Positions 34,701 through 61,700 of a DNA stretch of 64,000 nucleotides are shown piece after piece (the stretch's first letter is position 1; every line of letters starts with the position of its first letter). Made by a program: the position numbers and the translations under genes. Origin of the DNA: Candidatus Omnitrophota bacterium (lineage in GTDB: Bacteria > Omnitrophota > Gorgyraeia > JABMRN01 > RBG-13-46-9); the NCBI GenBank assembly GCA_013203315.1, contig JABMQJ010000026.1:41006-105005 (forward strand), written 5' to 3'. Below the pieces are notes generated by a model. The model made no database searches. It saw nothing but the letters and a program-made list of their open reading frames with translations, and was not told where the DNA came from.

Positions 34701-37700
34701 GGTTCCCGAACCCGAACCCGGAATCGGCCCACGCGGGGCGATAGGTCTCTTGGGCGAGGCTGACGAAGTCGAGAAAAAGTTGCTAAGTGAAACCGGAAGA
34801 CGCGAGTATGTGCCGTTGTCCGCAGCCGGAATGAAGGGTCTCCTGGCGGTATACCAGCGTGACGAAAAAACGGGCGTACGCGGTATGCGGATAGGAACCG
34901 TAAAAAATCTAAAGCTAAATGAAAAAGGAGAAGTCATAGGTGGGGATATTGTTGAGAAGAAATCGCTAAGTGAAACCGGAATACGCGAGTATGTGCCCCT
35001 GTCCATAGAAGGTATGGAGGGCTTCCTGGCAGTATACCAACATGACAAAGAAACGGGTGTACGCGGCGAACGAATAGGAACTGTAAAAAATCCAAAGATA
35101 AATGAAAAAGGAGAAGTCATAGGCGGAGATATTGTTGATAGAAGAAGAACCGCTACAATTGGCTCACGCGAATACGTAATTGCAAGAGTTGAAGATGGAA
35201 ATGATATACCGGAAAGCCTAGCATACCTTCCTGGAGACATGAAGGATGTAGTGCTTGTGTATTCCGGATATGACGAAAACCAGCCGATAGGATACGCTGA
35301 AAGCGGTAAGATCAGCTTCAACGAAGACGGAACAGCCACGTTAAGCGATGATGTCATAATTATGAGGACAGCCCGGGTGCCGTTTACAGGTGAACTTGGG
35401 GCAGTAGGCCACCTTTATGCAAATGGAGAATATTACAATCTTCGTAAGGGCGAAGTTCATGGTTTTGACGGAAAATATACTGCGAAATTATACAAAATCA
35501 AAGAATTCGAAAAAGAACGTGTAGAAATAAGATTTACAAGTACCTCGAAACATCCACGTCATGATTCGGCCAGAGAATCTATCGTATTGGTCCAGGACAT
35601 GGAAACAGGCCTACCTATCCGTGAAGAAAATGTGCCACTGGTGATACGCGATGGAAAACAAGCTTATGTTGTTTACGGGACAATACACTTTTTCAATTGC
35701 AATGAAGAAGGAAGGCCGCAGTACGTGGAACTACGATTATCAGACGGCAAATTCCATGATGGCGTGTCAACGCGCAAGGCTAAAACAATACGATCAATGG
35801 AATGCGAATACAGAGAAGACGGAACGCGTGTCAATACCCGATGGACATACGGAAAAGGAAAAGAGTGGTGGAAGAACAAAATCTTCCAGCGTGGAGTAGA
35901 AGCCGTTGTGGCCCCGGCAACTCGCATGAAAGGCGTATCGGTTGTCACGCTTGCTCAAGTAAGGTGGAAAAATGCATGGTGGAAAACCCAGGCAAGTTTT
36001 GGAAGTGGGATAATAAAGTTAACAGAGCCATTATCCCAAACCGACAGAGGGTGGGAGGCATGGCAGTCAGAGTTTGACGTTGAAATGCAGGATGCCGGAC
36101 ATTCCACCGCACCGATGGGAAGTGCTCAACAAGCTGCCCCCCATGACGATAATTGGAAAGATATGACTAAATTACCGCCGCAACCCCGCACCGCAATAAC
36201 TCCGAATAGTATTGCAGGAGAGGTCTACGAGATAAATAAGGTGATCGAAAAGCACCATCCCAATCTCATGAAAAGGCTTAATCAACATTTGTCGCAAGAA
36301 AATTGGAACGAATTCTGGGCTGATATATGCGAGATACACCGATTAAACGTATGGCCTGCCAGGGTCCACCTTGAAGGCGTTGCGCACTATCTCGATCTTC
36401 TTTTAACTGAAATCGAAGAAGAAGGAGGAGACGTAACTCTTCTTTTCAGTGACCTCGAATTGGCAACGATTACATTTAAGGATAGAAAGCTTCGGGGAGT
36501 ACTTGCAGCAGGAACAAGAGGAACTGACCCAGCGTTAGGCGAGGGATTGGATATTTTGATAAATGTTTTAAAAATTGCAGATAACCTAAAAAGCCGCGAA
36601 GATTCAATACTTTATATGAGTGAGTGGGAGATGAAGGCGCTTGGCGCCGAAACCAAAGAAGGAATAGTCACAGCAAGGCTTCGCATTTTCCTAAAATTTC
36701 TTACAGACTATAAAAACGGAAAAATGACCAAGAGAGATTTTGAATACGAACTAAAAATCGTGAACAACACAATTCACGAGTACGCAGTCCGGCATAATAG
36801 AGATGAACAACGCCAGGGAATAAGAGCTATCAAACCACTGCTGAAAAAACTTTATCCGGGACAGGAAAGATTGGATGAAGAGATCAACGTGTATGAAGCA
36901 TCCGCGAATATGCTCTACTGGTTTATGGTAATGCTGGACCTCTCGCCGAAAAAAGTCGAACAACTTATGCCGCTACTTTCCAAGTTAAAAGCACGCCTCA
37001 ATGAGTCATTGTTGGAATATGATGAATCTTTTGTGGAAATATTATTATACATAGCGTCTTTCAGGATATCCGGACCGAAGACTTACGAAGCTGACCGCCT
37101 CTTCCGGGCCAAGTTACAAGCACGCCTCAATGAGTCATTGTTGAAATATGATGAATCTTATATGCCAACATTATTAAACATAGCGTCTTTCAGGATATCC
37201 GGACGCCACACAACTAATAGAGGTATCGCGAGGGCTTACGAAATTGACCGCCTCTTCTGGGCGTTGATAGCACTGGTAGAGAATACCACTGACACGGAAA
37301 TCGCAGACCTTACCACGGAAGAAATCGAAGATATGATGAATAAAACAATCAACAATGATAGATGGATAGAATACTTTAATATGGCAATCGATGTTCAGAT
37401 AAAAAATGACACGATGCCCGATGTGTTTAAGTCAGCTTATTATGCAAGTGCGTCTCAGAGGCCACCCGCAAAGATAGCACGAATAAGAGAAGATGTACCT
37501 ACAAAAAGTGACACACACTATCTGAGCATAACCTATATACCAGGCTCTGAAATAAAAGAATCCAACGTAAAAGCCTATACCGTATCCGAAGATGCAGATG
37601 GGAAGCAGGAGATGATGAAGTTTATTATAAAGAAGGATGCAGAGGGCCACCCGATAGTAGAGCTTTTTAAGGGTGGCGAAAGCGATCCCAGCCAGGTTTG

Positions 37701-40700
37701 GGAAGGCGTATTCGATGTGAATGAATGGCTTGTAGGATCTGAGCTGGAAGAATGCATTACAATAGACGGGAAACCCGGCAAGCTTTTAGAGACATTAGAA
37801 GAGGCAGAGGTCATCGAAGAACTAGGAGAAGAGGGTGTGCCGGCGCTTCCCGCTCCAGAAGTTCCTGGACCCGCAGTCGGCGAACGCGGGCCAATAGGTG
37901 CCTTGGGCGCAACTAAACCGGCAGAAAAAGTATTGGCAACAACGCCGGATGGAACAAAAAAGTTCGTCCAGCGTCCGGATGGCAGTGTATGGCTAGTGGC
38001 GAAAGGAGACCCGAATCATCTTGAGATGTCTAGAGGAAAGACGCAAGCATGGGCGGACAGGAAAAATGCGCCACCCGAACCTCGCAGTGATATAAACCCG
38101 GAAACGATAAGCGAGGAAGTAAGCGGAAAAACGGAATCTATCGCTGCAACGCTTGAAAAATATTACCCGGAAGAAATGAAAGCGCTTTCCGAAGTTATTA
38201 CGCCGAAACAGTGGAACGAAATGTGGGCAGAAGTTTGCGAAGTTCATAGGCTAACCCCTAGAGGGGCCAAGGAGCATTTAGAGCGCGTAAATTATTGGTT
38301 GAATGAAATTCTTAAATGGGAAGAAAATAATGGTGTAAAAATTGACATTCCGGAGGATATGTACTCGCTTCTTTACGCCATTCGGCCGCTAAAAAATGAG
38401 GTATGGCCCATAGAGAAGGCGCTTCCCGGGTTACTGCGAAAATTGACCTATGTCGATTTTATGGCATCATTGGAAAAGCATAGGTTGTTATTTGATGCCC
38501 CGGTTCTGAAGCTAGCCGACGCAACAGTCAGGAAAGATCTTCGGGAGGTTTTCGTTCGTTTCTTCAAGATACTAAAGGACCATCAGAAAGGGAAGCATGA
38601 CAAGAGTGCCATTTTAAGATTTAGAAGGGAAATAGATGATAGAAACGCAGTGATTGTTGATCTCGCATTACGGCATAATACCGGGGAGCAGCTAACTGGT
38701 GAGACCGCTGCGCTTGAAAAAATCTCAAAACTTTTCCCGGAGTGGAAACTAAAGTATGGAGTGAGCCAGAAGGGTTTTCACGACTCTCATATATTGTTTT
38801 CATTTTACATGTTTATGGTAACCCAGGACCTTTCATCCGGTAAGATCGATGAGCTTATGCCTTTATTGCAGGCGCTGAAACCTTTTCTTAATGATTCCTT
38901 CGGCGAATACAAAGACATGGAATTAGGTAAGTTGCTAAAAACGCCGCGTGGCTTCGATCTTGACGGGGTTATACAAGTGTGGAAAACTCTGGGTGAGGAC
39001 TTAAAGAAGCTTTGGGGCGGCGAGGTGCATAAGCAAATGCTTAGAGGCCTTGAACTTGACCGTCTCTTTGAGGCAGCACGGCTAATAGTAGAATATCACA
39101 GCGGGGGAAAAAGGATAAAGGATTTATCAGGAAAAGAGATACAAGAGATTCTAAAACAGACGCTCGGGAAGAAAGGCTACACGGGATTTCTTGCCAGGGT
39201 AATTAATATTCAAAAGAAGAACGGCCTTACCCCGGACATGCATAAATCAATTGATTGCGCGAATACACGCAAGACACCGCCACAAGCCGAAACGGTGACA
39301 AGAAAAGACCTCCCCGGAAAACTACCGGGAGGAAAATATTACCTGAGCACGACCTACGAAAGCGGCTACAGGACCCCGGAGGAATATACCTTATATAAAG
39401 ATGCGGAAGGAGAGACAAAGATAATAACATTTTCTCTAAGAAAAGACGGAACTGTTAGGATAATATACGGCAATGATGAGGCGGCTTCGCAAGTTTGGAA
39501 GGGCAAATTTAATAAGAATGCGTGGTTACAAGGAAAGGCTTTAAAAGATTGCATTACAATAGACGGCGAAAAAGGCCAGCTTTTAGAGGAATTAGGTAAG
39601 CCAGAAGATGTGGAAAAAGGTATAAAACTAGAAGAGCCTGCGGTGCCCACGCCCACGCCTGCGCCCGGAATAAGTGAACAGGTACTTGGACGTGCAACTC
39701 AAGGCGCAAAGAGCGCAGTTGCAGGCACCGGTTCACCTTTGACGAATTTTGTGATGATCGTAGGTATGAGTGCGATAGGCGTTGTAACCGACTCTCAACA
39801 AGCACAAGAGCCCCCAGCGCAAGTGGCGCAAGTGGCACCGGCGAAGTCGGCGCAACCGGCGAAAAAGGCGGCGACGCCGCCGGCGCAAGCGAAAAAGCCG
39901 ACAACGCAGAAGGCACAAACACAACCCGCAGCGAAACTGAAACCTGCTGAAAAAGCTAATCTACTCATGAACTACAGTGGGCCAGATGGAAAAGATTCAT
40001 ACGGCCGTAATGCCGGAGAAAATTTCTGGGGACATGTTGGCATAAGCGATCCTATACAGGCAGAAAAAACAAGAAAAGCTTTTCGACACATGAAAAAGCT
40101 GGGCATCGACTCCGTGAGAATGGGATTAGTAGCCGATGGCCGCTCACTAATGGACGAAAATGGAAAGGTTGACCCCCAAAAACTTAATAAGTTCATGGAG
40201 GACGTAGAGGCTTTACTTAAAATTGCAGAGGAACAAGAAATCCAAATAGAAATAGAATTTTCCCTTATCGACCATCTTATAGCGTATAAGGGCAGAATAG
40301 ATAACGGCGTCCCAATTTTTGGTAGGGATGAAGTAATAAAAGACGCTGCAGGATTTGTTAAAGACTTCCTGACACCATTCCTTCAGAAATTCGGGAAACA
40401 TAAGGCGATAAAAGGAATCGACATTATAAACGAACCGGAATGGATCTGGATTAATACCCCCGTTACAAAGGACAAGGTAAAACAATTTATAAGAATATGT
40501 TCGAAAGCCATAAGGAAATGGGCTCCGGGTAAAACCATAACAGTCGGTGTTAATACCGAGTATACCGGAGAAATGGCCGCATTAGTTCGCGAAGGCGTGC
40601 TGGACTACGTAGCCATTCACCACTATGAGGATAGGTTCAGAAGGAAAAAAGCCGACGGCACATTCGAGAAAGATAATTTCGCGACATTAGAACGCTTCGT

Positions 40701-43700
40701 AAAGGCACTTAGCGTGCCTGAGGCACAAAGAGTGGCATGGGCAATCGAAGAATCCCAGATAAGAGAAGAAGATATCCCTCGGGTTCTGGAAATCATTAAT
40801 AAGTATAACGGAAAGATAATCGGAATTTGGGGATGGAATGATAGTGACAAGAGAAGCCTTAACCCGGCAACGCGCGGTCCCTTACTTAACAAACTGCAAC
40901 AGCTTAGAAAAGAACTACCTGTGCCGCCTACTGTGACACCGCCCATGCATACCGTAGAAATGACGAAGGCGGTTAGCGAATTAGACCCCGGAAAAGCGCC
41001 GAACGAACCTGTTTCCCCTCTAACAGCACCCAAGATTGTGCGCCCGTCCAAAAAAGACATTAACCGGGTCCGCGTGCGCAAGAAAAAAGACGAAGACGGA
41101 AAAATTAGCGAATCCTATAGATATGAAAAACGAACGAGAGATCACGAAGACCCCAGAAAGCGCAAACACAGCAAAATTCTTGATATCGGCGTTGGAGAAG
41201 TAGAAAGAACGGAAATTCCCAGAGCAGGCGTCGACCTTATTTATATAATACAGTTTGACCCTTTAACAACAGAAATAGTACGCATGGAGTTATGGCGCGG
41301 GAAGTTAAAGGTAGAAGACAAAGGGAAGGTAATAAGCTACTTACCTGAAGGAGACCTTGAGCCCATGCTCGTAGAGTACGCGGAATTCGAATACAATCCT
41401 GACAAGACAGTAACGATGCGCCTCGCAAGGCGCGATGTTCTGGGAGGCGAAGAAAACTACATAGAGGAATACGTATTTAAAAAAGTAAAATTCGAGGATG
41501 GCAAAATAAACATAATGGTTTCGAAGACTGTCTATGACAAAAGCCTCGTAGAAAAAGCTACGGTAATTACGCAGATTGACAGGAATGAAAAAACCGGCGA
41601 AATAACAGAAAGGGAATGGATACAGTGGCAGGGCCAAGAACTGCAGAAGTCATCGATGACTGTCTACGCCTCTCACATAGATAAAACGGGCTTCTTGGTA
41701 TGGGAAAGGCAAAGACGCAGAGACTTTGGCACCGGTGCGTGGTTAGAGACATTACGCAAAAAGGTTAAAGGGCAGAAAATAGAAATTGAGAAAGGTAAAA
41801 ATAAAAAGGGCGCGTATTATGATGGCAAGGGAGGAAAAAGCCGCATTTACTATGCAGATGGCGGTAGGTGGGTTAGCATGGAAGACGGCGTTTCCGCTGC
41901 GGCCGAAATTAAGAAAGGCCAGAAGAGAGATAAGCCGTTCGACCCTATAAAAATCGGTTATACCGAAGCCATAGATATAGAAGGCAAAAAACATGTATTA
42001 TATGAAGCCGACACCGAGATAGAGAACAACGCAAAGTTTGACCACAAAAATAATACACTTACATTACCTGAGGAGATTACCGTTGATGGCAAAGACTTTA
42101 AAATCCCCGATGCCGCGCGAACTTACAAACTCCCTGCTAAACTACCTGGCGATAGGGCGATATATAAATTCCATGTAAAGAGGGAATACGACAGCGAGAA
42201 GAATAAAGTGTTAACTACCCAAGTAGAGTGGGTAGTAAGGGATGAGGCGGAAAAGCTGATCTACAAGGTTACAAAGAATTTGATAACGGGCGAGACAGAA
42301 GTTTATGAACTTCATCCCGAGATGAAGATGGAAATAACCGAATTGGAACTTGAAGCAAAACCGGGCGAACATCATGACCAGACACATAAAGATGTTTCGG
42401 AAGGGACATTTTACGACGAAAAGGGTAGAGAAAAGGGAAAAGTATATCACAGAATGGTTTTTGACCCCAGGTACAGGGATAAAGACAAATGGCGTTTCCT
42501 GCAGGAAAGAGGAAAAATAGTCGAAGAGAAGGTGCGTGATGTCGAGAACAACAGGGAAATCACCGTGCTTTATAGCATAACAGAAACGATAGAGTTCAAA
42601 GAAGATGGTTCGCAGGTCGTGAGAAAGGTAAAAGTATCCGTAGATGAAAATTATAAACCCGATGGCAGGGTTCGAGAGGAGCTCATTGTAAAAAAGGATA
42701 AATATGGCAGGATCAAACAGGTTGATGGGGAACCGGATAAATTTGGCATACGCGACGGGCTTACTACTCAGGGTGTTAAGGATGTCGGAAAAAAGACAGA
42801 ATCCCGCTTTACCCCGCAAACGTATAAATTTGTGCCGGTTACGAAACCGGGGCAGGAGTTGCCGGGGTTAATTACGGATAATAAGGGTGTGCAAAAGGAA
42901 TATGTGCTCGCGACTACAGGACGCGATTCTAAAGGTAAATTAGTTCTAAATTTCAAAAAAACCGATAAACGCTTCGGTTACACCCAAGTTGTGGTGCCCG
43001 AAGGCGCAAGATGGGTTACAGAGACTAAGGAAGATGTAATAAGGGATGAAAAAACAGGGAAAGAGATTACAAAGAAACAAGTGGTATTTGGCCTCTACGA
43101 CGCCCATGGGAAACCTTTATATCAGGATATAGCTACTAAATACGGTGATAACGGAATAGTCCACCAGGTTTTGGTTTATAACCCCACTGATAGCACGATG
43201 GCAGAATACGCCACCTACAGAAAAAATTGGCAGGATAAAGAAACACTCATGCTGAAAAAAGTTTCACAACTCCTGCGCTATCGCAACTCCGAACTGATCG
43301 ATCAGTGGTTACTATTATACGAAGAATCATATCTAAAAGGATTTGTAAGGGAATACACATATGATATGCAAAGGGCCCTTAGCGGCGCTTTTGGCGGCAT
43401 GCAACCCCTCACGAGTAAAAAATGGAAACTAAACAAAGACGGTTCGCGCGGCGAATTGACAGAGCACATGGCATTTCTTTACTATGGGCCGACAGGGCAG
43501 CGCCTGATTGTAGATATGCGTGACAGGAGAGACGACAACGGAAACCTCATAGATCACGAAACGCCGTTGGCAGCGGGTCAGGCAGTGACGGGCCTTGTTA
43601 CCCCGTTTGCAATAGGGGAAGAATTCGAAACAGAAGAGTGGAATACAAAGATTGTAGAGCGTCCGGACGGAACGCTATGGATTGACACTTCACAAGGCGA

Positions 43701-46700
43701 CCTTCTCACTTACAGGGTGTCCGCAAACGACGAGTTTTATCTCACGGTTCACTTAACAAGAAACCCTGAAACAGGAGAATATACGGTACGAAACGTATTT
43801 AAAGGTAAACCTGTTTCCGAATTCTACAGCGTTTATGGAAATAGAAGAATAAAGGAATATACAGAGCTTGACCGAAGGTGCGTAACTGTAAACTCCGAAA
43901 CAGGCAGATGCGAAGTGTCTGAAGAAACAGGCGTGGTAATTCTCACGAATCCGGAAACTGGTAAAGCACTGGATACCGAAAATCCGAAGGACATAAGATT
44001 GCTCGAAAAAAACATGTTCTTAAGCGATTCGGCAAATCCCGATTTCTCTTACACCATACCTTTAAAAGGCCCTGATTTCGAAAATGGATATTTCTACCTG
44101 AATAAGAAACTAAAAGGAAAAAGCATACCGCTTCTAAGATTAAGACTACGACGCGGCAAAACATTTGATGACTTACTTCGAAACGCACAGACCTCGGTCT
44201 CTGATAAAGCAGACGCCGAGTTGACTACAATAGATCCGAGAGATGCGGTGTTAGATGCCGTTTACGCTTCCTCTGAAGGCGTAACATATCGTGGTACAGG
44301 ACTTACTGTTGTATTTTCAATCATGAATATCGGAAAAGCCATCGGAGAAGGCCAGGAAATAAACATGGTTCCGATTCTGAACGAAAAAACAGGTGAAATC
44401 GATGAAGCGCGCGGCACGAGATTTGTCGTGAGGAAAGGCTCCGAAAAGATATTAGATCTGGATACTAATCTCGATAAAGTACCCCCTTCGATGCGTAAGA
44501 TTAAAACCATTGGCGGCACGCCTGCTTCGAAATTTACGGGTACTATTAAATGCCGGGTAGAGGAGCAGGTCCATTGGAAAAAAGTGTCGGTAACACCCGA
44601 GAACCGGGAATCTCTATCTGAAGAAATAGGAGAACCGGGTAAGTTAGGCCTACCAGGCGCAGAAGGGCCGATCGGTGCAAAAGAAATAACACCTCAGCCG
44701 GGAATGAAACTGACAGATAAAGATACAGATATCATCGTGAAAAAGTATTTTGATAAAGATGACAACTTCCTAAGGAATAAAACAGCTTTCGGAATAGGTA
44801 CAAACAAAGCAGCTAAGGATCTCGTTTTGGGAGCGCTCGGAAATTTAGAAAATTCCGACCCAGTATTTAATAAAAATGCAGGAAGCGATATATTAGATCT
44901 TCTTTACACAATCGCAAGGAAAAATAACTTAAATCAAGAAGAGTTACGACGTCTCATCGATGAGAAACTGATACCTTTAACCGATCTCGCCGTAACAGGA
45001 TTTAAGAATTTAGATATTCAAAGCATCGAAGGACTAACAAAGGATGATTACATAAACTTGAGTACTAACGAGAACGCAATGGCCCTCGGTGTACTTATTT
45101 ATTGGGCAAGCAATCGCGATGAGAAGTTTAATTTTGACGAATTCTACGATGCATTTAATGAACTGTGCACATATCCAGAAGGGGACAAAGACAAGCAGGG
45201 CTTGAAAGACGCGCTACTATCATATTTCGATACAAGACTTAACTTGGCAGCAGCGGAGAACAAGGTCAAAGTCGACGAATTGTCAGAGGCTAAAAGATTT
45301 GGCATCTTCGTGGATGTCATGTCATCTTTTGCTAATCAAAAGGTTGCATTAGAAGAAGGACGTTTGTCTGGGGAAAGGTTTATAGAAGGGTTGGGTTTAG
45401 ACGAACTTGGACTGGAACCGGGAGAAACACTTCCGCCGCGCATTATGAAATTATTCATTGAAGCAGAAGAAAAAAGGCTTCAAGGCGTACCCTATGCTGA
45501 GGTGCAGGAGGAATTAGAAGAAAAGCTAAGCCCGGGTATCGGGACTCCGCTATTAGACGGTTTAAAGACAATTTGGAGCTTTGTTCCATATGTAATGGGT
45601 CTTATGAGTGCTTTAATAGCAGCATTAATTGCAATTATTATTAGGAGACGTCTCCCACCGAGATTTAGGCCGGGTTCGTTAATGTCGCAGCTTAGGCCGC
45701 GCGCGTTACTGAGTCTAGGACGCTCGTTACTAAGTCTATCATTCAGGGGACTACGTCGTGCCGGTAAATGGATAGGGCTTCCCTTGGTTCTGGTACTCTT
45801 AGTAGCAGGCGAATCATTCGGCGCCCCCGTTGGTGCGGATCAAGTTTTAACTCTTGTCGATGGCGGTCCAAGTTTTTTTTCAAGCCTTTGGGCCGCTGTT
45901 CCAAGTCTAATCTCATGGTGGGGTGTTTTTTATGCCTATTGCGCATTTACTATAGGTAGAGGGTTATATAGGGCTATTATTTCAGATAGAAGTTATGTAG
46001 ATCGAGGCACTCGCCACTTTGTAAGGCCTGCGACAGCTAGCAGAGAGTCTCTAACACTAGGTTCTCTTCACCAGTCGATTTCTGACATTGACGCAACGGG
46101 TATGACAAAAGTAGAATTCCTGGCAGCAATAGAAGATGCCATGAGTGATCAAGACTTTAATGATGAATTCAACCGTATTTTTGATAGAGAAACCGCAGAT
46201 ATATTGCAAGGTGAAGGTATTCTTGAAAATATAAATAACAATGATGGCGTGGGAGCGAAACAAACCTTGCTTAATGAAGTCATGTGGAGAGAGGTAGGGA
46301 CTTCTATAAGCCACATGCAAGGAGCTATGTGGGATATACACAGAACCCTCGAGCCTTCTAGAACCGGGACTACTGGCAAGAATAGGTATGTTCCTGTATA
46401 TAGATTTTCAATCTCTACGTTTTTAGCATTTCTTGCAGGCAGCGGTCTTTTGCTTGCGAATTTTTTGAAAGCAGGCGCCACAGGTTGGTCCATGGGTTAC
46501 GGCCCGGGCATGTGGATAGCAGGAGGTCTCCTACTTCTTGTTGCCGCTATAAACGGATATAGGTTCATATGGGATGTAGTCATGCGCATACTTGACGGGA
46601 TTCCTCGTATTGGTGCTTTCGCAAGGCGCCGTCGGTTAGCGCTTGAAGTAATGGAGAATGAGTTAAGCGCTTTGAGGGAGTACTACAACCAGCTCAGTAC

Positions 46701-49700
46701 ACAAGGTGGTTACGGTTTTAGCGCGGCCCAGTGGCAAGAAATTCTGAAATTCCCTGTCCATGTTCCGTTTGGCGGTGTCGATGAAGCCATTGAAACCTAT
46801 GAAGAAACTATTTCATTTATGGAATACATTGAATATTGCCGGGCCTGGGTAGATTTTTTAAAGAAAAATAAAAATTACAGAATATTTGCCAGACTAGCAT
46901 ATCCACCGGACCAGCAGAGGCGTGACGTAATGCCGAGGTTTTATACGCAAGGCCCCGAGTACTATATGGCGCATACTCCCGGTACTAACTCTATTACAAC
47001 TCTTATGCCTGGTAATGAAAACGATAGTCCCGAATATGACATAATAGGCCAAGACCAGCCTCGTAACGGCCATCGGAGATATACAAATACTACAGGTATT
47101 CCGTTTACGAGACGAGTTCCGGGTGTTGGGCGTATAAGAAATCCTTACGCGGATCCAATACACCCCTTTGTGCCATTTGATAACATGTATAAATATTTGT
47201 CGCATATCAGAAATAGGGCGCGCGAAGTGCGGAATGCAGGAGGTAATCTTGCGCTTGTTACAGAGCGGGAAGAGGTTGTAGCGCATAATACGGTAGGAAC
47301 AATTGCGGGAAGGTTTGGTCCGGGGTCGGAGCACACCAGCTATCCGGGTGTTTTATGGGACAGGCACCTCTGGCACACTATTCTATTCGCAGGCATGGTA
47401 GTTCCGTTAGTGATGCTAGCCTTTCAGTTCAGGCTTGATCTCGTTGCCATGGGAATCGCTGAAGATTTGCAAACCATGTCTATGGGCTCATTTAGTGTTG
47501 CTGCGATTATTGCGGGTATCATAGGATTCCTTACAGTAGTCGGTTTACTTAAAACTCATCTTTTTGGATCGGGATATACCCAAAGAACGCGGCGCATATT
47601 AGGTGTTTCTGTGGTTGCAGGACTTGGTGGCGTTATTTATGCATTTGGCCGGGACGGACTGGCAAAAATTGCGGAATTTTGGGCTCCATACATACCGGAC
47701 TTTCTCTCCACTTTATTTACACAGGACAGCGTTATAGTAAAAGGCATAATGGCTTTAGGTAGCATATTGAGTCCGAACGTGCTCTTTTGGGGGCTTTGTG
47801 TTACTTTGGTTATTTTGGGTGTAGTCGCGCTTGTCTTCATATTCCGTTATTTCTCTTCAGCCTTTCGCTCGCACGCCAATGAGATACAGGATGAGGATAT
47901 TTCAGATTATGTTCCGGATCGCATCTTAAGAGAAGCGCTGAATAGGGCAATAGAGGATGTGATTACCGAAAACAAGCAAGCTAACTTACCCGAAGTGATA
48001 AGAGACCTAAGAAGAGGCAGGCCGGCCGGGACCCCGCTGATTCTGGAAACTGACAACGTGCAGGATATTTACAACCAGGTTTGCGCGTCATATAGAGGAT
48101 TAAGAAAGGCCGCAAGGCTTCGGGCGAACGAAGCTCTATCAGATTGGCTTATTTACCGTATGAGAATACCGCATGAAGTTTCGTCTGCCGGAAGGAGTAC
48201 TGTTAGCGTTGTTGATATAGGAACTGTCGTAAATGATGTTCGTAGAAGGCAGCATATTATCGATACCTTAAGAGCAAACGGTTATGCAGCGCAAATGGCC
48301 GATTTACCCGCCGCAGCACCTGTAGGCGATGATGGCCGCACGACTAACAGGGACATAATCGAACGATTATCGTACGACGAGATAGAACATATTTTCAACA
48401 CGCCTGCTATAGCGGAGGAGATATTCGAGCCTGTTGTTCTTGCGGATACTGTTTTTGGTGATGACATAGATGGCGTCCGCCAAACGTTGGAAAGCGCCAG
48501 GAAAAGTTATAGAGGCCGCGTATACATTGCTCTCGCCATGGATGACGACGACCCAATGGGCGGCCCCGCAGCTATTAGCGCAGCTATGGAACCGGGAGGG
48601 GCCCTGGCACAATATGCCGATAACATAATAATTTACACAGGTTCAAACTGGGGAGACAATTTAAGGAGATCCCAGGGCAAGATTCGCATGAAACCCGCTC
48701 TTGATGTCGAAACAATCCAATATCTTAAGAAGGTTTTTGGCGAACGGGGAGTAGCGCTACCCGCTTTTGTAGAGTTAGTTGACCAGGAAGATAAGCTAGG
48801 AGCACTTCTTCTAAATTCCAAAGCATTTTTGAGAAAAATGTATGACAGAACAATAGACGATGAAATAGCCGGAAGAAGAAATAGAAGAGACTATGACAGG
48901 TGGGGAATAGGGTACGCCGGCTTGTTTGGCCAAAGGACCAAGTTTTTCATTACATATTATTGGACGCTTCTCAACTTAACAGTGAGATCCTTAGGCGCAA
49001 CGCCTAACGAAGACGGCAGCGCTAGACACAGGATAGCATTTATGCTTGAGAAGTTCAAGGAAGTGTATGGCAACTGGCATGAATTTGCAGAGTCTGAATT
49101 TCAGGCAAGAAGTCATCCCTACATTATTCAGTCCGAACTTCGCCTTGTTCCTAATAAAGACCAGACACATGACTATCTGTCCCATTCCGATTATCTCATG
49201 TGGCATACGCAGATTCAGGTTGGTCAGACTGTCAATAAATTTCTATTCTTAGGCGGAACAGGAAATAATTTCCGATGGGATATGCTTGCCGGCGAATCGT
49301 TTAATCCTGATGGAACGCATTGCGAGTATTTAAATCATAGAGCCGAACTTCAAGACCTTTTAATGCCTTTAAGAAGAAGCATTGAAAGAGATGAGTCGAG
49401 GGTCGCGGAATCTTACGCGAGATTCCCGCTTCCTTTAAGGATTATAATCCATTTAGTCATACATCCTTTACGCGCGCTTTTTGATCCGAGTGTAAGATCA
49501 ACACGCATTTCTTCAGGACTTCTAAAAAGGAATCTTAATACCTATTCTATCGGCGGAACGTGGGATTCTTATAACATAATCGAAGACTCAGAGTTAGGTC
49601 GACGCCTCGCCCTCTATGGACTCGGCGCAACGAGGCTCACAGGTCCCTTTACCAAGGTTCTCGAAGATTTATTGCCGGTTATGGGAAAGCCGTGGTGGCA

Positions 49701-52700
49701 ACAGAGGGCACGCTGGATTATAATGCAGACATTTGCCGTTGTTCTGTCACACCCTGCCGCATTCTTTATGTTTTTCGGCCAGTATGTAAGTATGGGACTT
49801 GGGTGGATGTTACTCGGAAGCGCAGGGGCAATACTGCCCGGGCTGGCAGGAGCTGCTATAGGGTTTCTTGTCGGGGGATTTGTATTTTATTACTTAGGGC
49901 ACCTTGTTAATAACATTCTTATATGGACAGGCTACAAGAGGAACGCCCAGTGGCAAGTAGACCCCGTTAAGGCATTAGGATACTGGAGATTTCAGCATAT
50001 TTCGCATTTGGCCGCAGCGGCCCCCGCTGCCATCGCAACCGCTATAGCGCTTAGCATATCACTTCTTTACGGAATAGCCTTAGTAAATGTTCCCGGATTA
50101 GAGCTGTCAGGTTCGGGGGTAGGAGCATTTCTTGTTGAAGCCATAAGGTTCTTAGGGGTTTACATTCCTTTTATAAACGGATGGTTACCTTTTTGGTGGG
50201 TCGGCGCGATCGTATTTCTCACTCCTCAAGTTATACAGGTATTTATGGGCTGGATAGCAACCGCTCAGCATGGCGTGCAGGATGAAGAATCTACCACTGC
50301 AGCGGCGCGTATTTTTCTAACAGAACGCAACTATACTGGAAACAGTCCTAACCCGCTTATTGGAATACCAAGTTTGGATTTTGCTAACGTTGCCCCTGCA
50401 AGTGTGATTGGCACCAACCGCACGATAGCAGAACATTATAGTCGCTTTTCGGATGATGAATTTGTTCTGAATTGCTTGGAAATGTATATAGCAAATGCCG
50501 GAGACGCACTTCGGGTTGCAACGCCAGGTAATGTTAATCCTGATTCTTTTGGCTGGGTCGATCTTGATGCTAACTGGACTGAAAGGGGGAGGCATCTGTT
50601 AAACCTAGCAAATGCAGACGATATAGAAACTTACAGAAGGGCCCTAAGAGGGGCCATAAGCCACGCTAGGGGGCTCCAGGCAAAAGTAAGGGGAGACATA
50701 AGATTTTCATGGGGGGTCGGTATTTTTGGCGGTGCCTTAGCCTTATGTAGCGCCTTCTTGGTGAGTACAGGATTCTTTTATCCATTTTTTGGTGCTATAT
50801 CTATAACAGTCGGCTTGCTTTTAGTGCTTGGTACCGTTGCAACGCAGGTTCTAAGCTCGAGGCCCAGCAGAGGGCGCAGTTCCCCCGATGCCCCGCTCGG
50901 CACTAGGCCACGTCTGTCCTCAATAGGAAGACGCCCCTACCAGGGCTATCACTATTTTATAAGGCAGCCTCTTATGCTGGTCTATTTCATGAATCTTCTT
51001 CCTGCAATGGCCATAGGCCTTTTCATGTCAGGTTTTACGGGTGATAGATACCAAAATCAGTCTTTCTGGCCGAGAGGAAGGCAGGGGCTTGCTCCGCCTA
51101 GACTTGGTGAAAGAAGGACTTTTACAGGTTTTCGTAGGAGAGTACTCGATGTTATAAGAACATTTTTCCTTTCAGTTACATTGATAGTCGGTCCGATATT
51201 GATCATTATACAAAACCCTGCTGAGAAAATGCACCTGGATCCAATAGTGCTCACACAGTCCATTGTTATGGGTCTTGAAGCGGAATACCAGAGGCATATA
51301 CGCCGTGTGGGGCGGGCCCCATCTCCAAAAGAAATATACGAAATTCTTAACAGCGATAAATATAAGCATCTTCAGTACGGATGGATTCTCGGAAAAATTA
51401 CTGAGCTGGAAAAATATATTGCAGCAGGCGAAAAAGAACGCGCCGAGATATGCCTTATGTGGGTAATAGAAGGCATGAGAGTGCAGAATGACTCTATGAC
51501 TAAAGCAGACGAAACAATAGATTTGGGGGCAAAAGAAAATTTTGAGAAGCTTTCCCAGTGGTTCTTTGAATTTTGTTATCGCAACAATTGCATGGAACTT
51601 TATTACAAGGTATTGCCTATGACTCATAGGGCGCTACCCAACACAGATTGGAAGGTAGATGATTCAAATAAAGCAAAGGCAAAAGTGATTAACGACAAAA
51701 ACGGAGAAGCGCTTAAATTAAAATGTGAAATCGAGGGAAATAGAGGCGCCGGTGCAGGTTCAATTACTGTAAGAACAGAGCTACCGCAGGCCGTCGATAT
51801 GAGCGATCTGGAATATGTACTGAGCTATGGCGTAGAGACCGATGACGGCTCAAAGTGGACCCGAAACATTACGGTCAAACTTATCGATGGAAATGGTAAC
51901 GAATATTCCAATCCTCTTATTCGTGATCTTTACGCAAACAGCGCAAGTGTGAGGATAGCTCCGTTACTAAAAATGCAACGAGAACAGGCAAAGAATACCG
52001 GGACTGAAGGGCAGTTTTTTGATCCGACAAATGTCACAGGTATTGTGATTGAAATAGGCGGGAACCTCGCGAGAGATTTTTCAGGAACAATAGAATTGAA
52101 ACACTCAAGAATCCAGACAACCCCTTCGGCAGCTACTGTAAAGGATGCCAAGGATATAGATGTAAGGTTATTAATAGACATGATGATGAAAAACGCTTTA
52201 CCGCAAAGAGAACAGGTTATTCGCGCAGTAGATAGGCATGTTGCGGAGATGATGAGGAAAATTCTGATGCTTGAGCCATTTATTCCAACCGCAGTAGTGC
52301 AGCGACCTGTAGATGAGGCCGTGACGGCTACGCAACCACGAGTAGCCCCGGAGGTATTAAGCCCGAGAGCGAAAAAAGCGGCAGAGCGAAAAATAGCAAA
52401 AGGACAGGACATCGCAGCAGCAAGAAAAGCAAGAGCTTATAGCGCAAGAGCTAGAGCAAGAAGAAGGGGTATCGCCCTCACATTGATGATACCTATAATA
52501 GCTTTCGCAGGGGCACTTTTCTCATCAGCTCCTTATATTATGGAAATAACCGGCGTAGGTAGCATACCTCTAGCTATGCTTATCGGGCTAGGCTCTATGC
52601 TCGCTTTTGCTTCAATAGCTGCTGTAATTAGTGTATTATTTGTAGTAGCCGTTCTCACATATATGCATTTACTCCTATACAAGACCCTGTCGAAGGTTGA

Positions 52701-55700
52701 ACTGGCGGAAGAAACAGATCCTGCACTTTTGGCGCATATGAGTACAGTTATGGAGAAGGCTAAGCAGAACGCGGAAGAAGATGCAGCTCTTGTTGGTGTG
52801 GCTGCGATGATTGTTGATGCAGACGGGAACGAAGTAGTTATAGGGGCCCAGTCAGAGTCAGCACTTCCCTCAAAACGATTTGATCATGCTGAAATCAATA
52901 CACTTATCGCAAGCCGTAACGCCGGCACAGATTTATCCGATTGCACCTTACTTGTTTCCCTTGAACCATGCGACGGGTGCGCAAAGGCAATAATTAATAG
53001 CGGTATCAAAAAAGTAGTAATAGCGACATTGGAGCCGAGCCAATGGATATTAGGAGAGGGCGCTCGCGCACTATTATTGGCAGGCATAGAAGTAGTTATC
53101 GCATCTAAACCGGTTCAAAGAGACGCTTTGGAACATTTTACTGAAAGAATGCATGTATTAGGAAGAGAAGGAGAACTTGCTATTTCAGTTGAAGAAGCTA
53201 TGCAAGTTAATGATCAACCGATTTCACTATGGAAATCAACAGGTGTGGAAGACTTAAAAGCATTGGCGAGGCAGTCACTCGATAATCAGACAGTTGATAC
53301 CCACAACGATAGACATGATATATATGAGTTCGATAGACTAGTAGCGCACATTTTAAGAGACAGTTTGCAGCTTGATAGAGATAGATTACCGCAAATAGTT
53401 ACGATTAACGCAAATTCCTTTGATAACTCTCTGGGATTAGAAGAAGTTTACGCAGAAAGAAATGTAAAAAATCAAATACTATGGACAGAACAAACTTATG
53501 ACCCATCAAGGCCACATTCTATTATACTTGCCGGAACAGATGAAAATTGTCTTAATATCTTATCCCAAATCGAACGCCAAAATCTAGCACCCCTTGGGCA
53601 TGTATTTATCATGAGAGGTTTCAAACCCGGCCAGCCGGTTACGCTTACAAGCGCTGCCGACTTCAAAGCGCGACAACTTGCAGAGCAACCACCGCTTCGC
53701 GCACCGCCGCTACCGGCAATACCACACGTGCTGCTCGAGGCCCACCGTGGGCTGATAGAAGGCACGAGCGCCGAGGAAAATACGGCTCTTGCACTACAAC
53801 AAGCTGCAAACGACCCAAGAACAAATGCGATAGAGTTCGATGTGCAGCGCTCAAGAACCGGAGAACTCGTGATTGCTCACAGAGGCGGCGCTATCCAAGA
53901 TGCTGATGGCAACACCAGAAATATTGCTGATCTCTCGCCAGAAGAAATCCACGCTATTGACCCAAGCATTCCGATACTTAGAGACGCACTCGATACTATC
54001 CTGATTCCATCCGGAAAAATTTTATTTATAGACATGAAGGATTTCAACTTGGAAGGCGACCAAATAAACGATTTCGTGAACCAAGTAGTGGAATTAATTC
54101 GAGATCGTCAAATCACTAACCATGTAAATATAGGTTCCTTCAATATAGATATTTTACGAAGAATACGGGCAAGGCTCCCTGCGGTTAGAATAAATTACTT
54201 CGGTGATAGTGAAAGAGAGCACCCTACGCCGACTCCAAGCACAATGGATCAAGATATCCAAAACGCCCGCGAACTTGGCGCAGTATATTTTTCAATAGCA
54301 ACCGATGATTTTACAGGTGAAGGTGAGCTTGATGAAGCTATCGACAAGGTGCACGCAAGCGGCCTTTCCTCTGATCTGTATTTTAGAGAAGGGGTCCCTG
54401 CCGGGTTCGAGAACGAAATAGCCACTTTACAAGAAAGAGGGCTCGGTATTGTCAGCACAACTGATAGCGGTACCCTCGCAGAATTTACGCAGCCCACACT
54501 CCAAACAGAAGGAAATGTATTGAGTATACATCCTGATGCAATCCTTGGCATGTATCGTGGATTCTTCATAGGCCATGTCAGGAGATTTACAGGTATTGCC
54601 GGTATATTAGGCCGGGAGCTTAATCTTACTGAGGCACAACAGGCGCTGTTGGAGCAGGCCTCACGGCTTCATAATCTTGGTGAAGATGTAAGGGGCGCGT
54701 ACGAAGCAGAATTTTTTGATTTGTCCAGTCAAGTGCGTAACGAGTTTAAAGAAGATGGAAAGCCGGGAGTTTCCATAAGGAGGGCAGTCGATCTTCTTAT
54801 TTCGCGTGAGATGTCCCAGGATCCTGAAACTCAAGATCAGGAACTTGTATCGCTAGACGCAGATACCAGATATCGATTATTCAGAGCAGGCTTATTAAAG
54901 ATTTTGAATAAAGAAGAGTTAACCAATGTAGAAACGGAACTATCGCATTCATTGTGCAATGCCGCGGAGAATAGACTCAGAATGTTCGGTGAAAGGGGCA
55001 TAGATCTATCTCAGGAATCCCGGGATCTAGAAATTTTGCTAAGATACAACGACGACTACATAGGATTTGAAAGAGACCTACCGCAGTTTGAAAATGAGCT
55101 TACCATGCCGGTTGAAGACATGAGGCTTCTCATAGCCATAATGTTCCTTGCTGATGTCCTGGAGATGGGAAATAATCGGTATGTGCAGCGCGAACAAAGA
55201 GGCAGAGACATTGAAAGCTTGCCGGCAACAATTGATTTTATAGAGACACGTTTAATCGCTGACGAGCGCATACAGGAAAGCGCCCCTCTGGAGAGAGCAC
55301 TGGTTCGTTTAAGAGCGCTTATAGCAAGAGAACATCCGGGCTTGGTTAGATTGCTGCTTCAGGCAAGGGGGACTACCGAGCTCATGCCGGAAGACCGCCA
55401 ATACATACAGACACTACGCCAGGAAGCGCCGAAAAAATCTATTCTCGAAGTTTCCTCCGGCGAAATACTAAATCACTCACGTGGTTATATAAGGGATCAT
55501 GTAGGAAGGGTAGCCCGAATGGTGCTCCGCGTCGGACAGGCCATGAACTTGAGCGACCAGGAAATAAATATTTTAAGGTGTGCGGTGTATGGCCACGACG
55601 TAGGTATTTACACGGTACCGGAAGTCGATAAAAGTTTACGCGAGATGGGAGTAGATTTTGCAAGAGCTAAAACGATGGAGTATGAAGCCTTTATGCAGTA

Positions 55701-58700
55701 CGCGGCTGGTATAAAGAGCGCTACCGAAGAAGGCGCTGAATTAACAGAAGAGGAAAGAATCGTTCTCGATGACGTATGCAGGCACGGCGCAAACTTTGCT
55801 GACTTCCTGAACGAAAGGTATCAGTTACCAGCAGAAGTTGAAATATTAGTTAGGGGTCATTTTAATCATCAAACATTCTTGTCAGATATAGCAACGAGGC
55901 GCAATGAAATATCTATTCCGCTGGCCAGATTAGAACTTCTGTTATCGATAATTGTTACGGTGGATTCATTTGAAAGCGGAAATAATAAATTTAAACAAGC
56001 ACAATATAGAGGAAGCGAGCCCGAGTCATTTACCGATTCACTGGGAACTGTTGAGGTGCATGGCAAAGATGGGTTCGTAGTCAGAATGTGTAGGGATTGG
56101 GGCATAAAAGATACAAGGCCGCAAGATGTGCTAAGAAAATTAATAGTTAATAGGGACCCCGAAATACTAGGAGTCGTAAGAGAAGCGCGGGAAGCGGCGT
56201 CAATCGACGAAGCCCTTACGCCCGCTGATTCGGAATTTATCACAGCCAGCCGCCGAATTATGCCTCGTCTGCGCAGGGTAATTAGAGCAATAGTAGATTC
56301 TGTCCGTGACATATTTGAACGACTAAGAATAGAAATAGTCATGCGCCGGATCGATCGAATGATAGTAGACATAATTGCCAAAGGCGAGTTACCGGTAATA
56401 GTAGCAGACATTGATGGCACGATAACAGAATCAAACATGCCGGTTTCCGATGAAAGCTTAGACGTGATTATTGAACAGGCGCGACTTGGCGTGCCGTTTA
56501 TGATGTTAACCGGTATCAGCGCTGCAACTGCCCGCAAACAATTATTTGACCCACTCATAGGACGCCTTAATGAACGGATAGATGTCGATAAAAGCGTTTT
56601 GATGAATTGTATTTTTGCAAGCGACAACGGTACACAGATCTACATATATGATGAAGAACTGAATAATATAAGGTGTGTATTTAATATTAATATGAGGAAG
56701 TATTTACCAACCGGAAAATACAACCAAATCTTTAAAATTGTCAATTCATGTATTCGCCTGTTTGACATGCGTACGATGCTGCAGGAGAAAATGGGCTGGC
56801 AATTTAACGATGAGGAATGGGAGAAATTCAGAGCAACTTGTACTGTAAGGAGAAAGATAGAGGGGGGTGTCAGTCAAATAACATTGATGGTGCTAAGCAG
56901 GAATGCTACCCATGAACAAAAAGAAGAATTCCAAGCAAAAGGCGGCGAAGTGCTACGAAACGCATACGCAGATTATATAAATAGTGAATTTGAAAGACTT
57001 GGTATAGATGTTAGAGCAAAGGTTTCGGGGTTAAGCTCAATAGACATAAACCCTGCAGGAATAGATAAAGGCTGGGCCATAGAAACTATCTCAAAGCTCT
57101 GTAATTTAACCCTCGATAGCATAATATTTATAGGTGATGCATTTGGTCTAAGAGACAATGATACCCCTGCGCTTAGATTTGCCGAAAAGGGCATCAATGT
57201 CGGCGCGCGTGTTGCAAAATCAACACATAAAGGAAAAGAATTTCTGCAGCTACGGGGTACCGGGCCCAGAGGATTTAACAATGTAATAAGAAGCGTCATC
57301 GAATACGTTACAAGATTCCAAAGGACGTCAACTAGGCTACCCATTGCTTCAGCATTGATGGCAAGATTAGAAGCAGGACCTATCCAGATACAGGATGCAG
57401 GAGCAGTGATAGCGGATGGAGATCTAAGAGATATGCAGCATTTACTGGATACACATCTCCAGATCAGTTTTGGAGGGGCGATTGAAAATTACGAGCTTTT
57501 CACTCAATCTTTCCTGAATCAATGCGTAGCCGTTGGCCTAGCGGTTAATGATAAAGAGTATATGAAATACCTGGCAAACATTACTTACGATGCTGTAGGA
57601 AACACATCGGAAGGCCGTGACGAGGCGCATCTTCCCGTTGTTCCTGTGCATTTATCAGCAGGAATGGGGCAACTCGAGTTTTTGATTGCCTGTGAAAAAA
57701 GACCCGACCTGGATAGCTTTATAGTAACAACCATGGATAACAGTAACATGCCTATTGAAGGCCTGCTGACGCTCGAATTCAAAGTCGCAAATCAGGATAC
57801 GCCTATAAATGTTTTTGTTTCGCGTATTGATCCACATGCTAGGCGTCTGTCCGGCGAAAGGGATCCCCAGTTACTTGCTGCCTTGGAAGAATTAAAAGAA
57901 TTAGTAAGCGATAGAGTAGTGGACACAACTCCTGGCGTACAGGCCACGGGTAGGGTGTTAACGAACAAGTTGGCCAGGCTATTTGATAGCATATTAAGGT
58001 CCAGTTTCAAAACCGGAAGGGCTACTGAGATTCCGGTGGACGAAGGTCGTGGAATTAACTGGAGCGAGATAAGAGAAGGGTTCCAGTTTGTGACACACGA
58101 CGAACTTATGGAAAGCCTGGATGTCCGTGGCTTACCTGTTAATATACATCCGGGTCGTGGAGGGGAAACACTGGGCCATGGCGGCCTCCAGGCTCACATA
58201 GATAGCTATATATATGAGAATTTATCAGATGAAGAGCTTAAAACTCTAGCAAGACACGAATTAGCCCACCTTGACATTTTCAATGTAGAACGTATGTCCG
58301 AACAGGAAAGACAAGCGATTGAAGGCACAGATGCCTATAAAACTTGGGAAGCATGGGTCGAAGCAGGAAAGCGTGAAGGTCGAGCGCAAGAGACATTTGT
58401 TAATAACCTCCCGGGGTGCAATGCAGTAGCGGTAAGCAGAAAAATAGAGCAGCTAGCGCGCAAAAAGAGACGCCAAAACCAAAGAGTAGCAAGCCAAGTG
58501 CTGGTCGCAACACCCGAAACAGTCGAACCCGCAGTCGCAATGCCTCTGACACCGAGCGAATATGCACGCGTATGGTCTCCGGATATAGCCACACACGATG
58601 AGATAGTCGCAGCAATTAACCCAACTCTTGAGACAGCCATTACGGCATTAAGCGGTAATGATCTTGATCCAATAACAGAAGTATTAAGGAATATCGCTGC

Positions 58701-61700
58701 TACAACAAACCCGGATGAAATAAGCGCATTAGAAGAAGCAATAAGGCAATTATCACGAAGGTATTCAATTTGGTCAGCCTATCTCGGCCAAAGAATTGAC
58801 GAAGCAAGAGATAGCCTTTCCGGGAGCGAAAGAAACCGCGTTGACGCACTATTTACAAGAGCAAGAGAAAGCGTAAGAGCTGCTCAGAACGAACAGTGGG
58901 CAGTTATAAACGCCGGCGGCGTAGGAAGCCGATTCTGGCCTGTTGGATATGAGAAAAAACCCAAACAGCTTTTGTCGTTTGAACCGGGCGAACCTTCACT
59001 TCTTCAATCAGCAGTACTGCGTCAGGTGAATCCCGATAACCCCAACTGTATAAGTCCGGATCATGTCGTGATTGTTACAAATGCTAATATCGTAGACGAG
59101 GTTTGGGAGCAGGTAAAGGACATAAAAGTAAATGGTGTAGGAATTCCAAGGGAAAATATTCTAGGTGAACCTAAGGGGTTGAATACGGGGCCTGCACTAA
59201 GGCTAGGCGCGTTATTTATTGAACAAAAAACCGAGGGTGGACCCGATGCTATTATACGAGCCCTGTATGCTGACGCTGTTATTCCTGATCATGTATCTTT
59301 CAACAAGGTACTAGCCAATTCCGCTGATGTTGCAAAGTTTACTAATGTTTATGTTGAAGTAGGTGTAACGCCCGGAAGAGAACTAGATGGAAGTCTTGTA
59401 GTGAATCCAAAATTAGGACATCAGCAACTAGGAAAAGACATAGGCGGAGACGCTAATTATCTTCTTAAGAGAGTTGAGAAAGAGGTAAAGGAAACCCCCC
59501 AGGCAACGCATGATTATTACAAGGGTTTAGTTGAGAGTGGTGCTACATGGAATAGCGGTTGCGTAGTAGTCAGAGCAGGTGTTCTGACAGACATGATACA
59601 GACAATGCACCCCGAGGTAGAAGAGGTATTTCAGAAATACAAGGATCGATTAGGGGAACCAAGCGCCCTTGAAGAATTATATGATGAACTTGAAGAAAAG
59701 GGTGCAAAGTTGCCGTACGACACTTTCTTTTCAAAAGATGCCGTTGAAGGGGAATACCTAAGATTTGGTGTCGTAGTAACAACGGGCCTTGAGAAGGACA
59801 ACTGGGATGACGTAGGTAATCTCGCAGAATCTCGCAGAATGGCCAAAATTCCGTCGGAAGACAATTTCATTGCGCAAGGTAATGAAGAAAACATAACATT
59901 TGAAGAAGACACTGAAGGCAATACTGTTTATGCAACAGATGACGGAACAAAAGTCGTTTTACATAGCGGAGTAAAAGATTTAATAGTTGCTTACGAGAGA
60001 GGATGTAATTCACTACTTGTATTGCCAAGAGATGATTCTGCAAGAGCAGGCGAAGTCGTAAAAGAAATAACTAAGCAAAGTTCACACTATCACAGGTTGC
60101 TTCCCTATGCAACGGGCGAAAATCCGCCCGCGACCTGCGGTGAAGCCCACGAACAAGATGAACACGAAAATACTAAAACCGGCGATGCAATTTTTGTAAG
60201 CGATGACACCCATAATTGCCGTCTTACCACAAGCAAAGGACTTATCGCTGCGATTAATCTAACCGGATATCACATCGAATGGGATGCGGGGAAAAACGAA
60301 ATACATGTTTCTCTTGAGAAACCAGCCGAACCCGCAGTCGCCATGCCTCCGACACCGGGCGTATATGCAGTGTCTCCCGAAAGAGCAGAAATAAAGACAA
60401 CGTCTGTTACGGCTAAGCACGATGGTATTTTACCATGGCTGGAAGAGGGGATAGCAAGCGGAGCAATAGGTGAAAACAGAGACCTTATCGTTTTTGATTC
60501 TCACTTGGATGTTTTTGCCTTCTCATCGGGAAATGACGGCTGGATAGCTACTATCAGGAATACAAATATGAAAGTCGGAAAAATATATGCTGTTGTGCCT
60601 ACAATGTGGGGCACTGTTCATTCGCTTAACGCAACAGCTATGAATTTGGCAAAAAGCCTGAATGTGGAAATTGTATTTGGCCTCGAGCAATTACCACAAT
60701 TTGATGAACCGGTTACAGTTTCATTCGAAAACGACTTTGTAGACATAAATCTAATTCATGCAACTAAAAATGAAGTAGCCGGAAGACAACGTGAAGTTGC
60801 TCGCGCACTTTCCGGAAGAAATATTCAGATAGAAGGTTTCCATATATCAAATGAAACAGAGCCGGAATACGCAGACGGTGAAGATAAAGGCTTTATAGTG
60901 CGCAATATGTGGGCTACGCTTGCTGAGGAAGGTTATGACTTAGAGAAGAAGGACACATTCACAAGATTACGCGCCCGAAACCCGGCCAAAAGAAAACAAG
61001 CTGTAGCTGATTTAAAAGAAGACCACCCGCTTCTTACAGAAGAAATAGATGCGCACCTTGGAGCACTTCCTATATCGGGTAAGACAATATTAGACAGAGC
61101 AAAAGAAACAGGTAGGCCTGTCCTTGCATGTAACATTGATAACGGCGAACTATCATCGCTTCAGATACGTTCAATGATGCAGGCAGCGCTCGACATGAAC
61201 GCATTCATCATGTTTGAAGTAGGACCTGCTGCGCTACTCACTTATGCTGATGGCAAACCCCAGCTTCCTGAATACTGCGCGCGCGAGGCATACAAATTAT
61301 ACAAAGAAACAGGAAAATCCGTTACATACGCTGTTCACCTTGACCACAACCAGATAAACAGAAAGAAATATAATACAAGAGGCGAAAGAAGAAAAGCTGT
61401 CCGGGAAGCCGTTGACCGCGCAAAGAGTGCCCTTGCCGTAGGATTTACATCTTTTGCGACTGATACATCTACATTAACCGACATCGACAAAGACACGGTT
61501 AAAGATCAGTTGCTCCCTGTAGTTAATACGGCCACAAGGATTCTTTCAGCTATATATGATGAAGCAAAGGCTCTTGGAGTAGAAGTAGGTAACGAAGGTG
61601 AGGTCGGCGACATAGGCACTTCAATAAGCACAGTTGAAGACGCCGTGCATTATTATCAGGAACTTGTTAAGAAGTTAGGCGCTCTCTCAAAGAGAATGGG

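Follow-up and report, generated by a model that had tools for sequence, protein, structure and literature searches.

A divergent membrane-integrated GT2 glycosyltransferase domain within a giant multi-enzyme protein of Omnitrophota

The window analysed here, a stretch of 64,000 nucleotides from a Candidatus Omnitrophota bacterium, carries a giant ORF in a single frame. Frame +1 stays open over 14,750 codons, from 19750 to 63999, and encodes a protein of >14,740 aa that runs beyond the window end. Two candidate starts, GTG 19774 and ATG 19777, both lie 3′ of a GGAG. The Pfam domains of the polypeptide are HD, GH5, deaminase, GDPD, a Cof/PMM-like HAD domain, a mannose-1-phosphate guanylyltransferase-like NTP-transferase (~58.9–60.1 kb) and a class II aldolase, and >25 hydrophobic segments were found across it by hydropathy scan. 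A weak TolC-like region is also present. Within the window, the protein showed no SecA_DEAD, C39 or dockerin domain. Its closest homologues belong to Candidatus Omnitrophota MAGs, which also supply nearly all of the named homologues. The host ORF, its GH5 domain and the membrane-associated features are as follows:

19774..63999, + strand: giant ORF, host polypeptide of the membrane module; frame without stops, start codons preceded by GGAG
40066..40581, + strand: GH5 domain (cellulase family) of this polypeptide; match to Pfam PF00150 at 25.7 bits (cut-off 23.5)
46297..52149, + strand: conserved membrane module (giant protein aa ~8850–10800), delimited by blastp of the giant protein against its homologues
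47368..47835, + strand: four to five hydrophobic helices (aa 9207–9362; hydropathy scan), directly N-terminal of the putatively cytosolic region bearing the glycosyltransferase (GT) domain
49717..50271, + strand: C-terminal helix bundle (aa 9990–10174), an interface-like helix and ~5 hydrophobic helices
49909..50016, + strand: conserved basic loop (aa 10054–10089), consensus R-x-G-x-x-R-N-x-Q-W-x-x-D-P
50722..51210, + strand: four more hydrophobic helices of the module (aa 10325–10487; hydropathy), collinear with homologues P0001, P0003 and P0006
52468..52656, + strand: final two or three hydrophobic helices (aa 10907–10969; hydropathy), end of the membrane stretch

The membrane module forms one collinear block common to the giant homologues P0001, P0003, P0004, P0006 and P0009 in blastp comparisons. 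A preliminary description of this DNA had counted at least 15 hydrophobic helices in a ~7-kb stretch; a Kyte–Doolittle scan yielded 20 non-overlapping segments and one marginal segment between 45586 and 52656. Hydrophobic helices flank the GT domain on both sides, and those on the C-terminal side follow its QRARW motif directly. The number upstream of the domain is ambiguous (8–10), and the last helix of the aa 9207–9362 cluster is conserved in P0001, P0004, P0007, P0010 and others. Loop K+R counts showed positive charge to cluster on the side of QRxRW and in the next-but-one loop: the basic loop at aa 10054–10089 has a mean K+R of 5.1, compared with 0.3–0.5 in the adjacent short loops. The positive-inside pattern would put the GT domain on the same side of the membrane as the next basic loop, which is consistent with a cytoplasmic GT domain. 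A strongly basic stretch (8 K/R in 15 aa) precedes the helices at aa 10907–10969.

The region between the helix clusters contains a divergent GT2 domain, whose motifs and insertions are ordered as follows:

48334..49716, + strand: divergent GT2 (GT-A fold) catalytic domain, aa 9529–9989
48541..48552, + strand: DDDD (aa 9598–9601), first, 'DDG'-type Asp motif, at the end of predicted strand β2
48691..48696, + strand: K9648-P9649 (RMKP), equivalent to TKP of the ordinary relatives and, in BcsA, to the lysine of KAGN
48781..48792, + strand: D9678-Q-E-D9681, DxD-equivalent (metal/diphosphate) motif after strand β4
48796..49119, + strand: insertion 1, ~108 aa (aa 9683–9790), a bundle of five helices that separates the DxD-equivalent from the QSELR strand
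49129..49143, + strand: Q-S-E-L-R (aa 9794–9798); Q, E and L invariant, R in 31/33 loci
49252..49272, + strand: G-G-T-G-N-N-F (aa 9835–9841), counterpart of PLGGTSNHF in ordinary relatives by hhalign
49291..49548, + strand: insertion 2, ~85 aa of long helices (aa 9848–9933), between GGTGNNF and IED
49579..49587, + strand: I-E-D (aa 9944–9946), TED-type catalytic-base motif, invariant in 34/34 loci
49702..49716, + strand: Q-R-A-R-W (aa 9985–9989), QxxRW acceptor-binding motif; Q, R, R and W invariant in 34/34 loci

The TED-like/QRARW pair had been noted previously and lies where it was described, with D9946 and Q9985 39 residues apart (36 between D343 and Q379 of BcsA). Taken alone, the pair is not strong evidence, because the bare pattern ED-x(30–45)-QxxRW also arose in 65 of the 2000 shuffled versions of the giant protein (~3%) and is only weakly improbable. 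This frequency and a Pfam score below threshold are the points in favour of a chance occurrence of both strings in a hydrophobic region lacking GT homology. PF13632 does match the region, as the profile check proposed earlier had sought, but at 20–22 bits and over profile positions 88–194 only, below its gathering score of 27 bits; NCBIfam models gave no match to the GT region. Profile, structure and conservation evidence nevertheless place the pair beyond chance. Specifically, phmmer searches against 1.84 billion representatives, hhalign comparisons and the lengths of structural alignments refute a coincidental origin, the probability of which we consider negligible.

In the phmmer search, aa 9932–10045 matched ordinary GT2 proteins, which carry PF13632, PF13641 and PF00535, at library-wide E-values of 1e-4 to 1e-3. 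Comparison of giant-only alignments with ordinary GT2 enzymes by hhalign gave probabilities of 98.0–98.3% (E 2.5e-13 and 1.8e-14), with weaker collinear matches over the N-terminal half that pair YP..DDDD, RMKP with TKP, and VELVDQED with IYDAED. The similarity extends into the first helix after QRARW (RWI..QT...HP). Distant family members with DAED and KPKATN bridge the giant family and the ordinary enzymes. A mixed profile aligned with BcsA (4hg6_A) at E 1.3e-4 in two collinear stretches, BcsA 134–257 and 340–493, whereas giant-only profiles found no GT2 among PDB sequences. For the nearest ordinary relatives, PgaC/IcaA and CelA models give the best fit; one of these relatives is named a cellulose synthase/PNAG synthase-like glycosyltransferase in one source.

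The two upstream Asp motifs, which the preliminary description could not place confidently, are both found and are collinear with BcsA 134–257. The first is the DDDD run that it had noted 347 aa upstream of ED, a distance that proved exact; in the mixed profile it aligns with the BcsA DDG region and, by analogy, it may bind nucleotide. D9598 is present in 30/30 loci and D9601 in 29/30. The second, D9678-Q-E-D9681, aligns with the VVFDAD region of BcsA in the same profile; D9678, E9680 and D9681 are each invariant (31/31 loci), and DAED occupies this position in distant family members and ordinary GT2 enzymes. Both are non-canonical: DDDD and DQED (in place of DxD) are variant forms, DDxD and DxED respectively. 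Between them, K9648-P9649 is invariant (30/30 and 31/31 loci). Q-S-E-L-R presumably matches by position the motif of VQTPH type in BcsA-like synthases. GGTGN.F is kept without change in all 34 loci, and G-G-T-G-N-N-F may also correspond to BcsA FFCGS. I-E-D aligns with the TED of ordinary GT2 enzymes and BcsA, and Q-R-A-R-W with BcsA QRGRW in the mixed profile.

AF2 modelling with a deeper alignment predicted a GT-A fold (pLDDT 85.1, pTM 0.86), in a model whose alignment included ordinary GT2 enzymes and whose C-terminal half may be biased to their fold. The helices of insertion 1 (model residues 159–260, pLDDT 88–98) are absent from the ordinary GT2 alignment. Insertion 2, with helices at model residues 335–401, is skipped by hhalign against ordinary GT2 enzymes; some homologues carry extra hydrophobic hairpins at its site, and the segment IGGTWDS begins after it at aa 9934 (nt 49549). 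Chlorella virus HAS provided the best Foldseek matches (E 1.5e-4); TM-scores in the Foldseek search were low (0.24–0.36). Structural alignments spanned 277–322 residues with processive synthases and ≤272 with soluble or non-processive GT-A enzymes. The model predicts the GT-A fold, the Asp motifs are in place, and charge distribution puts the domain and the next basic loop on one side, with helices following QRARW; none of the three refuting outcomes named in the preliminary description was found.

The GT module is carried by 34 species-level loci, almost all from Omnitrophota, and 30 of these copies lie inside very long ORFs. The loci are only 28–64% identical overall, yet the catalytic-type residues are invariant or nearly so, and the full motif set is kept under strong purifying selection. 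This conservation bears on whether the module is a dead GT2 synthase relic, retained only as a membrane anchor or scaffold. Such a relic might be expected from the extreme divergence, the sub-threshold Pfam score and the lack of a PDB sequence match, together with the two large insertions and non-canonical Asp motifs. Across loci of such low identity, however, D9598, D9601, K9648, D9678, E9680 and D9681 are invariant or nearly so, and E9945, D9946, Q9985, R9986, R9988 and W9989 are invariant in all 34. Because catalytic and substrate-binding positions are kept across divergent loci, a conserved active site is indicated rather than a scaffold, and we regard a relic as very improbable.

We are highly confident that ~48.3–50.3 kb encodes an active-type membrane GT2 of the BcsA/CesA/HAS/PgaC structural class. 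Its reaction could be of two kinds. An active membrane-bound GT2 that is not a polymerase may transfer one or a few sugars onto a lipid carrier, a glycolipid or an oligosaccharide; such an enzyme would be akin to PcManGT, DPMS, GtrB or ArnC, or to GT21 ceramide glucosyltransferases, which bear QxxRW, and would operate without coupled polymer translocation. Several observations count against it. QxxRW is invariant in the giant module loci, whereas enzymes of the DPMS, GtrB and ArnC type are not known to carry it. The best-fitting models of the nearest ordinary relatives are those for PgaC/IcaA and CelA, the longest structural alignments (297–322 residues) are with processive synthases, and the helices after QRARW contain invariant polar residues, for example Q10011. 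We judge a non-polymerase to be rather unlikely. The processive GT2 synthase of the preliminary description is largely supported, as a divergent GT-A GT2 with a full motif set; its processivity is inferred.

Our favoured interpretation, which we hold to be probable, is a processive synthase-translocase that builds a polymer from a nucleotide sugar and extrudes it. In this mechanism, a GT-A domain interrupted by two helical insertions, with 4–5 TM helices before it and ~5 after, would face the cytoplasm. D9598/D9601 and D9678-x-E-D9681 would bind the donor, a nucleotide sugar, probably with a divalent cation. D9946 of IED would serve as the catalytic base, and W9989 of QRARW would grip the acceptor end of the growing chain. 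The module's own helices would thread the product across the inner membrane, and the basic loop at aa 10054–10089 may be equivalent to the cytosolic gating-loop/IF3 region.

In common with BcsA (Rhodobacter sphaeroides 4HG6/4P00; E. coli 9FMV), the giant module has a GT-A domain between TM helix clusters, the motif order D, D, DxD-type, TED-type, QRxRW, and a QRxRW that directly precedes membrane helices. It differs in its low identity (~14%), its motif variants DDDD, DQED and IED, and its two helical insertions of ~108 and ~85 aa. The BcsA gating loop is FxVTxK, and in its place the module has its own conserved basic loop. BcsA is a stand-alone protein of ~750–900 aa, whereas the module lies ~9,500 aa into a polypeptide of >14,700 aa. 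Pfam and NCBIfam scans of 45001–63999 detected no PilZ or Bcs partner domains, and the CelA and PRK11498 models had no match to the window sequence; for these reasons the module should not be filed as BcsA. Plant CesA/CslF6 (8VHZ, 6WLB, 8DQK) have insertions elsewhere, the first insertion of the giant module following rather than preceding the DxD-equivalent. The module showed no resemblance in sequence to P-CR or CSR, is bacterial and has no zinc-finger N-terminus. HAS enzymes (Chlorella virus HAS 7SP6/9YQ4; Xenopus HAS1 8SMM) are ~500–570 aa long and ~10–12% identical to the module, in which their WGTR-type gating loop is not recognisably conserved.

The GH-like domain described earlier at 39.96–40.86 kb corresponds to the Pfam Cellulase/GH5 match (nt 40066–40581, 25.7 bits vs 23.5). 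A synthase/hydrolase fusion holds insofar as both domains occupy the same polypeptide, but within this multi-enzyme protein ~2,600 aa separate GH5 from the GT domain downstream of it, and the two are not directly fused. Homologous GH5 regions occur in P0003, P0015 and P0016, with a varying order of the GH5 and GT modules. The cyclic β-1,2-glucan synthase Cgs (8RF9), a GT84, has a defined GT–cyclase–GH94 order and a known product; in contrast, the giant protein has a distant GH5, a variable GH5/GT order among homologues and a host at least 5-fold longer.

Omnitrophota giants, termed 'Archaeovorins' or multi-enzyme metabolic giants, exceed 10,000 aa and have many TM helices, with glycosyl-hydrolase, sugar-metabolism, aldolase and HAD domains dispersed along the chain (10.1101/2023.11.21.568195; 10.64898/2026.06.07.730766). 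The host ORF fits this description in length (>10,000 aa), in its many TM helices and in its scattered enzyme domains. The glycosyltransferases reported in giant proteins are GT5 (glycogen-synthase-like) and GT1 (10.1101/2023.11.21.568195), and the domains PF08323 and PF00534 have been reported (10.64898/2026.06.07.730766). Term searches in the main texts of both studies gave no GT2, BcsA-like, PF13632, PF13641 or PF00535 domain. The two helical insertions and the embedding of a membrane GT2 in a giant polypeptide are new here. To our knowledge, this would be the first membrane GT2 synthase inside a polypeptide of >10,000 aa. It would also be among the most divergent membrane-integrated GT2 synthases, distinguished by two insertions and a conserved cytosolic loop that are new. 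Routine annotation with Pfam and NCBIfam overlooks the GT domain in at least 34 species-level genomes.

A more speculative proposal, which we think doubtful, is that the giant protein is a single-polypeptide exopolysaccharide factory, an 'operon in one protein'. Activated sugars for the embedded GT2 synthase-translocase would come from the Cof/PMM-like HAD, NTP-transferase and class II aldolase domains, the polymer would be trimmed or released by GH5, and its passage through the outer membrane might involve the weak TolC-like region. In multi-protein synthase-dependent systems, BcsZ, PslG and PgaB trim or release the polymer. So far, adhesion and prey cell wall degradation have been the main themes in discussions of Omnitrophota giant proteins. 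A conserved, apparently active cellulose/hyaluronan-synthase-like module adds biosynthetic and secretory activity to this picture, and a ~1,000-aa domain with defined catalytic residues offers a testable handle on giant proteins. If the factory proposal is true, Omnitrophota would, beyond degrading prey walls, build a surface glycan 'coat' or a matrix at the predator–prey interface.

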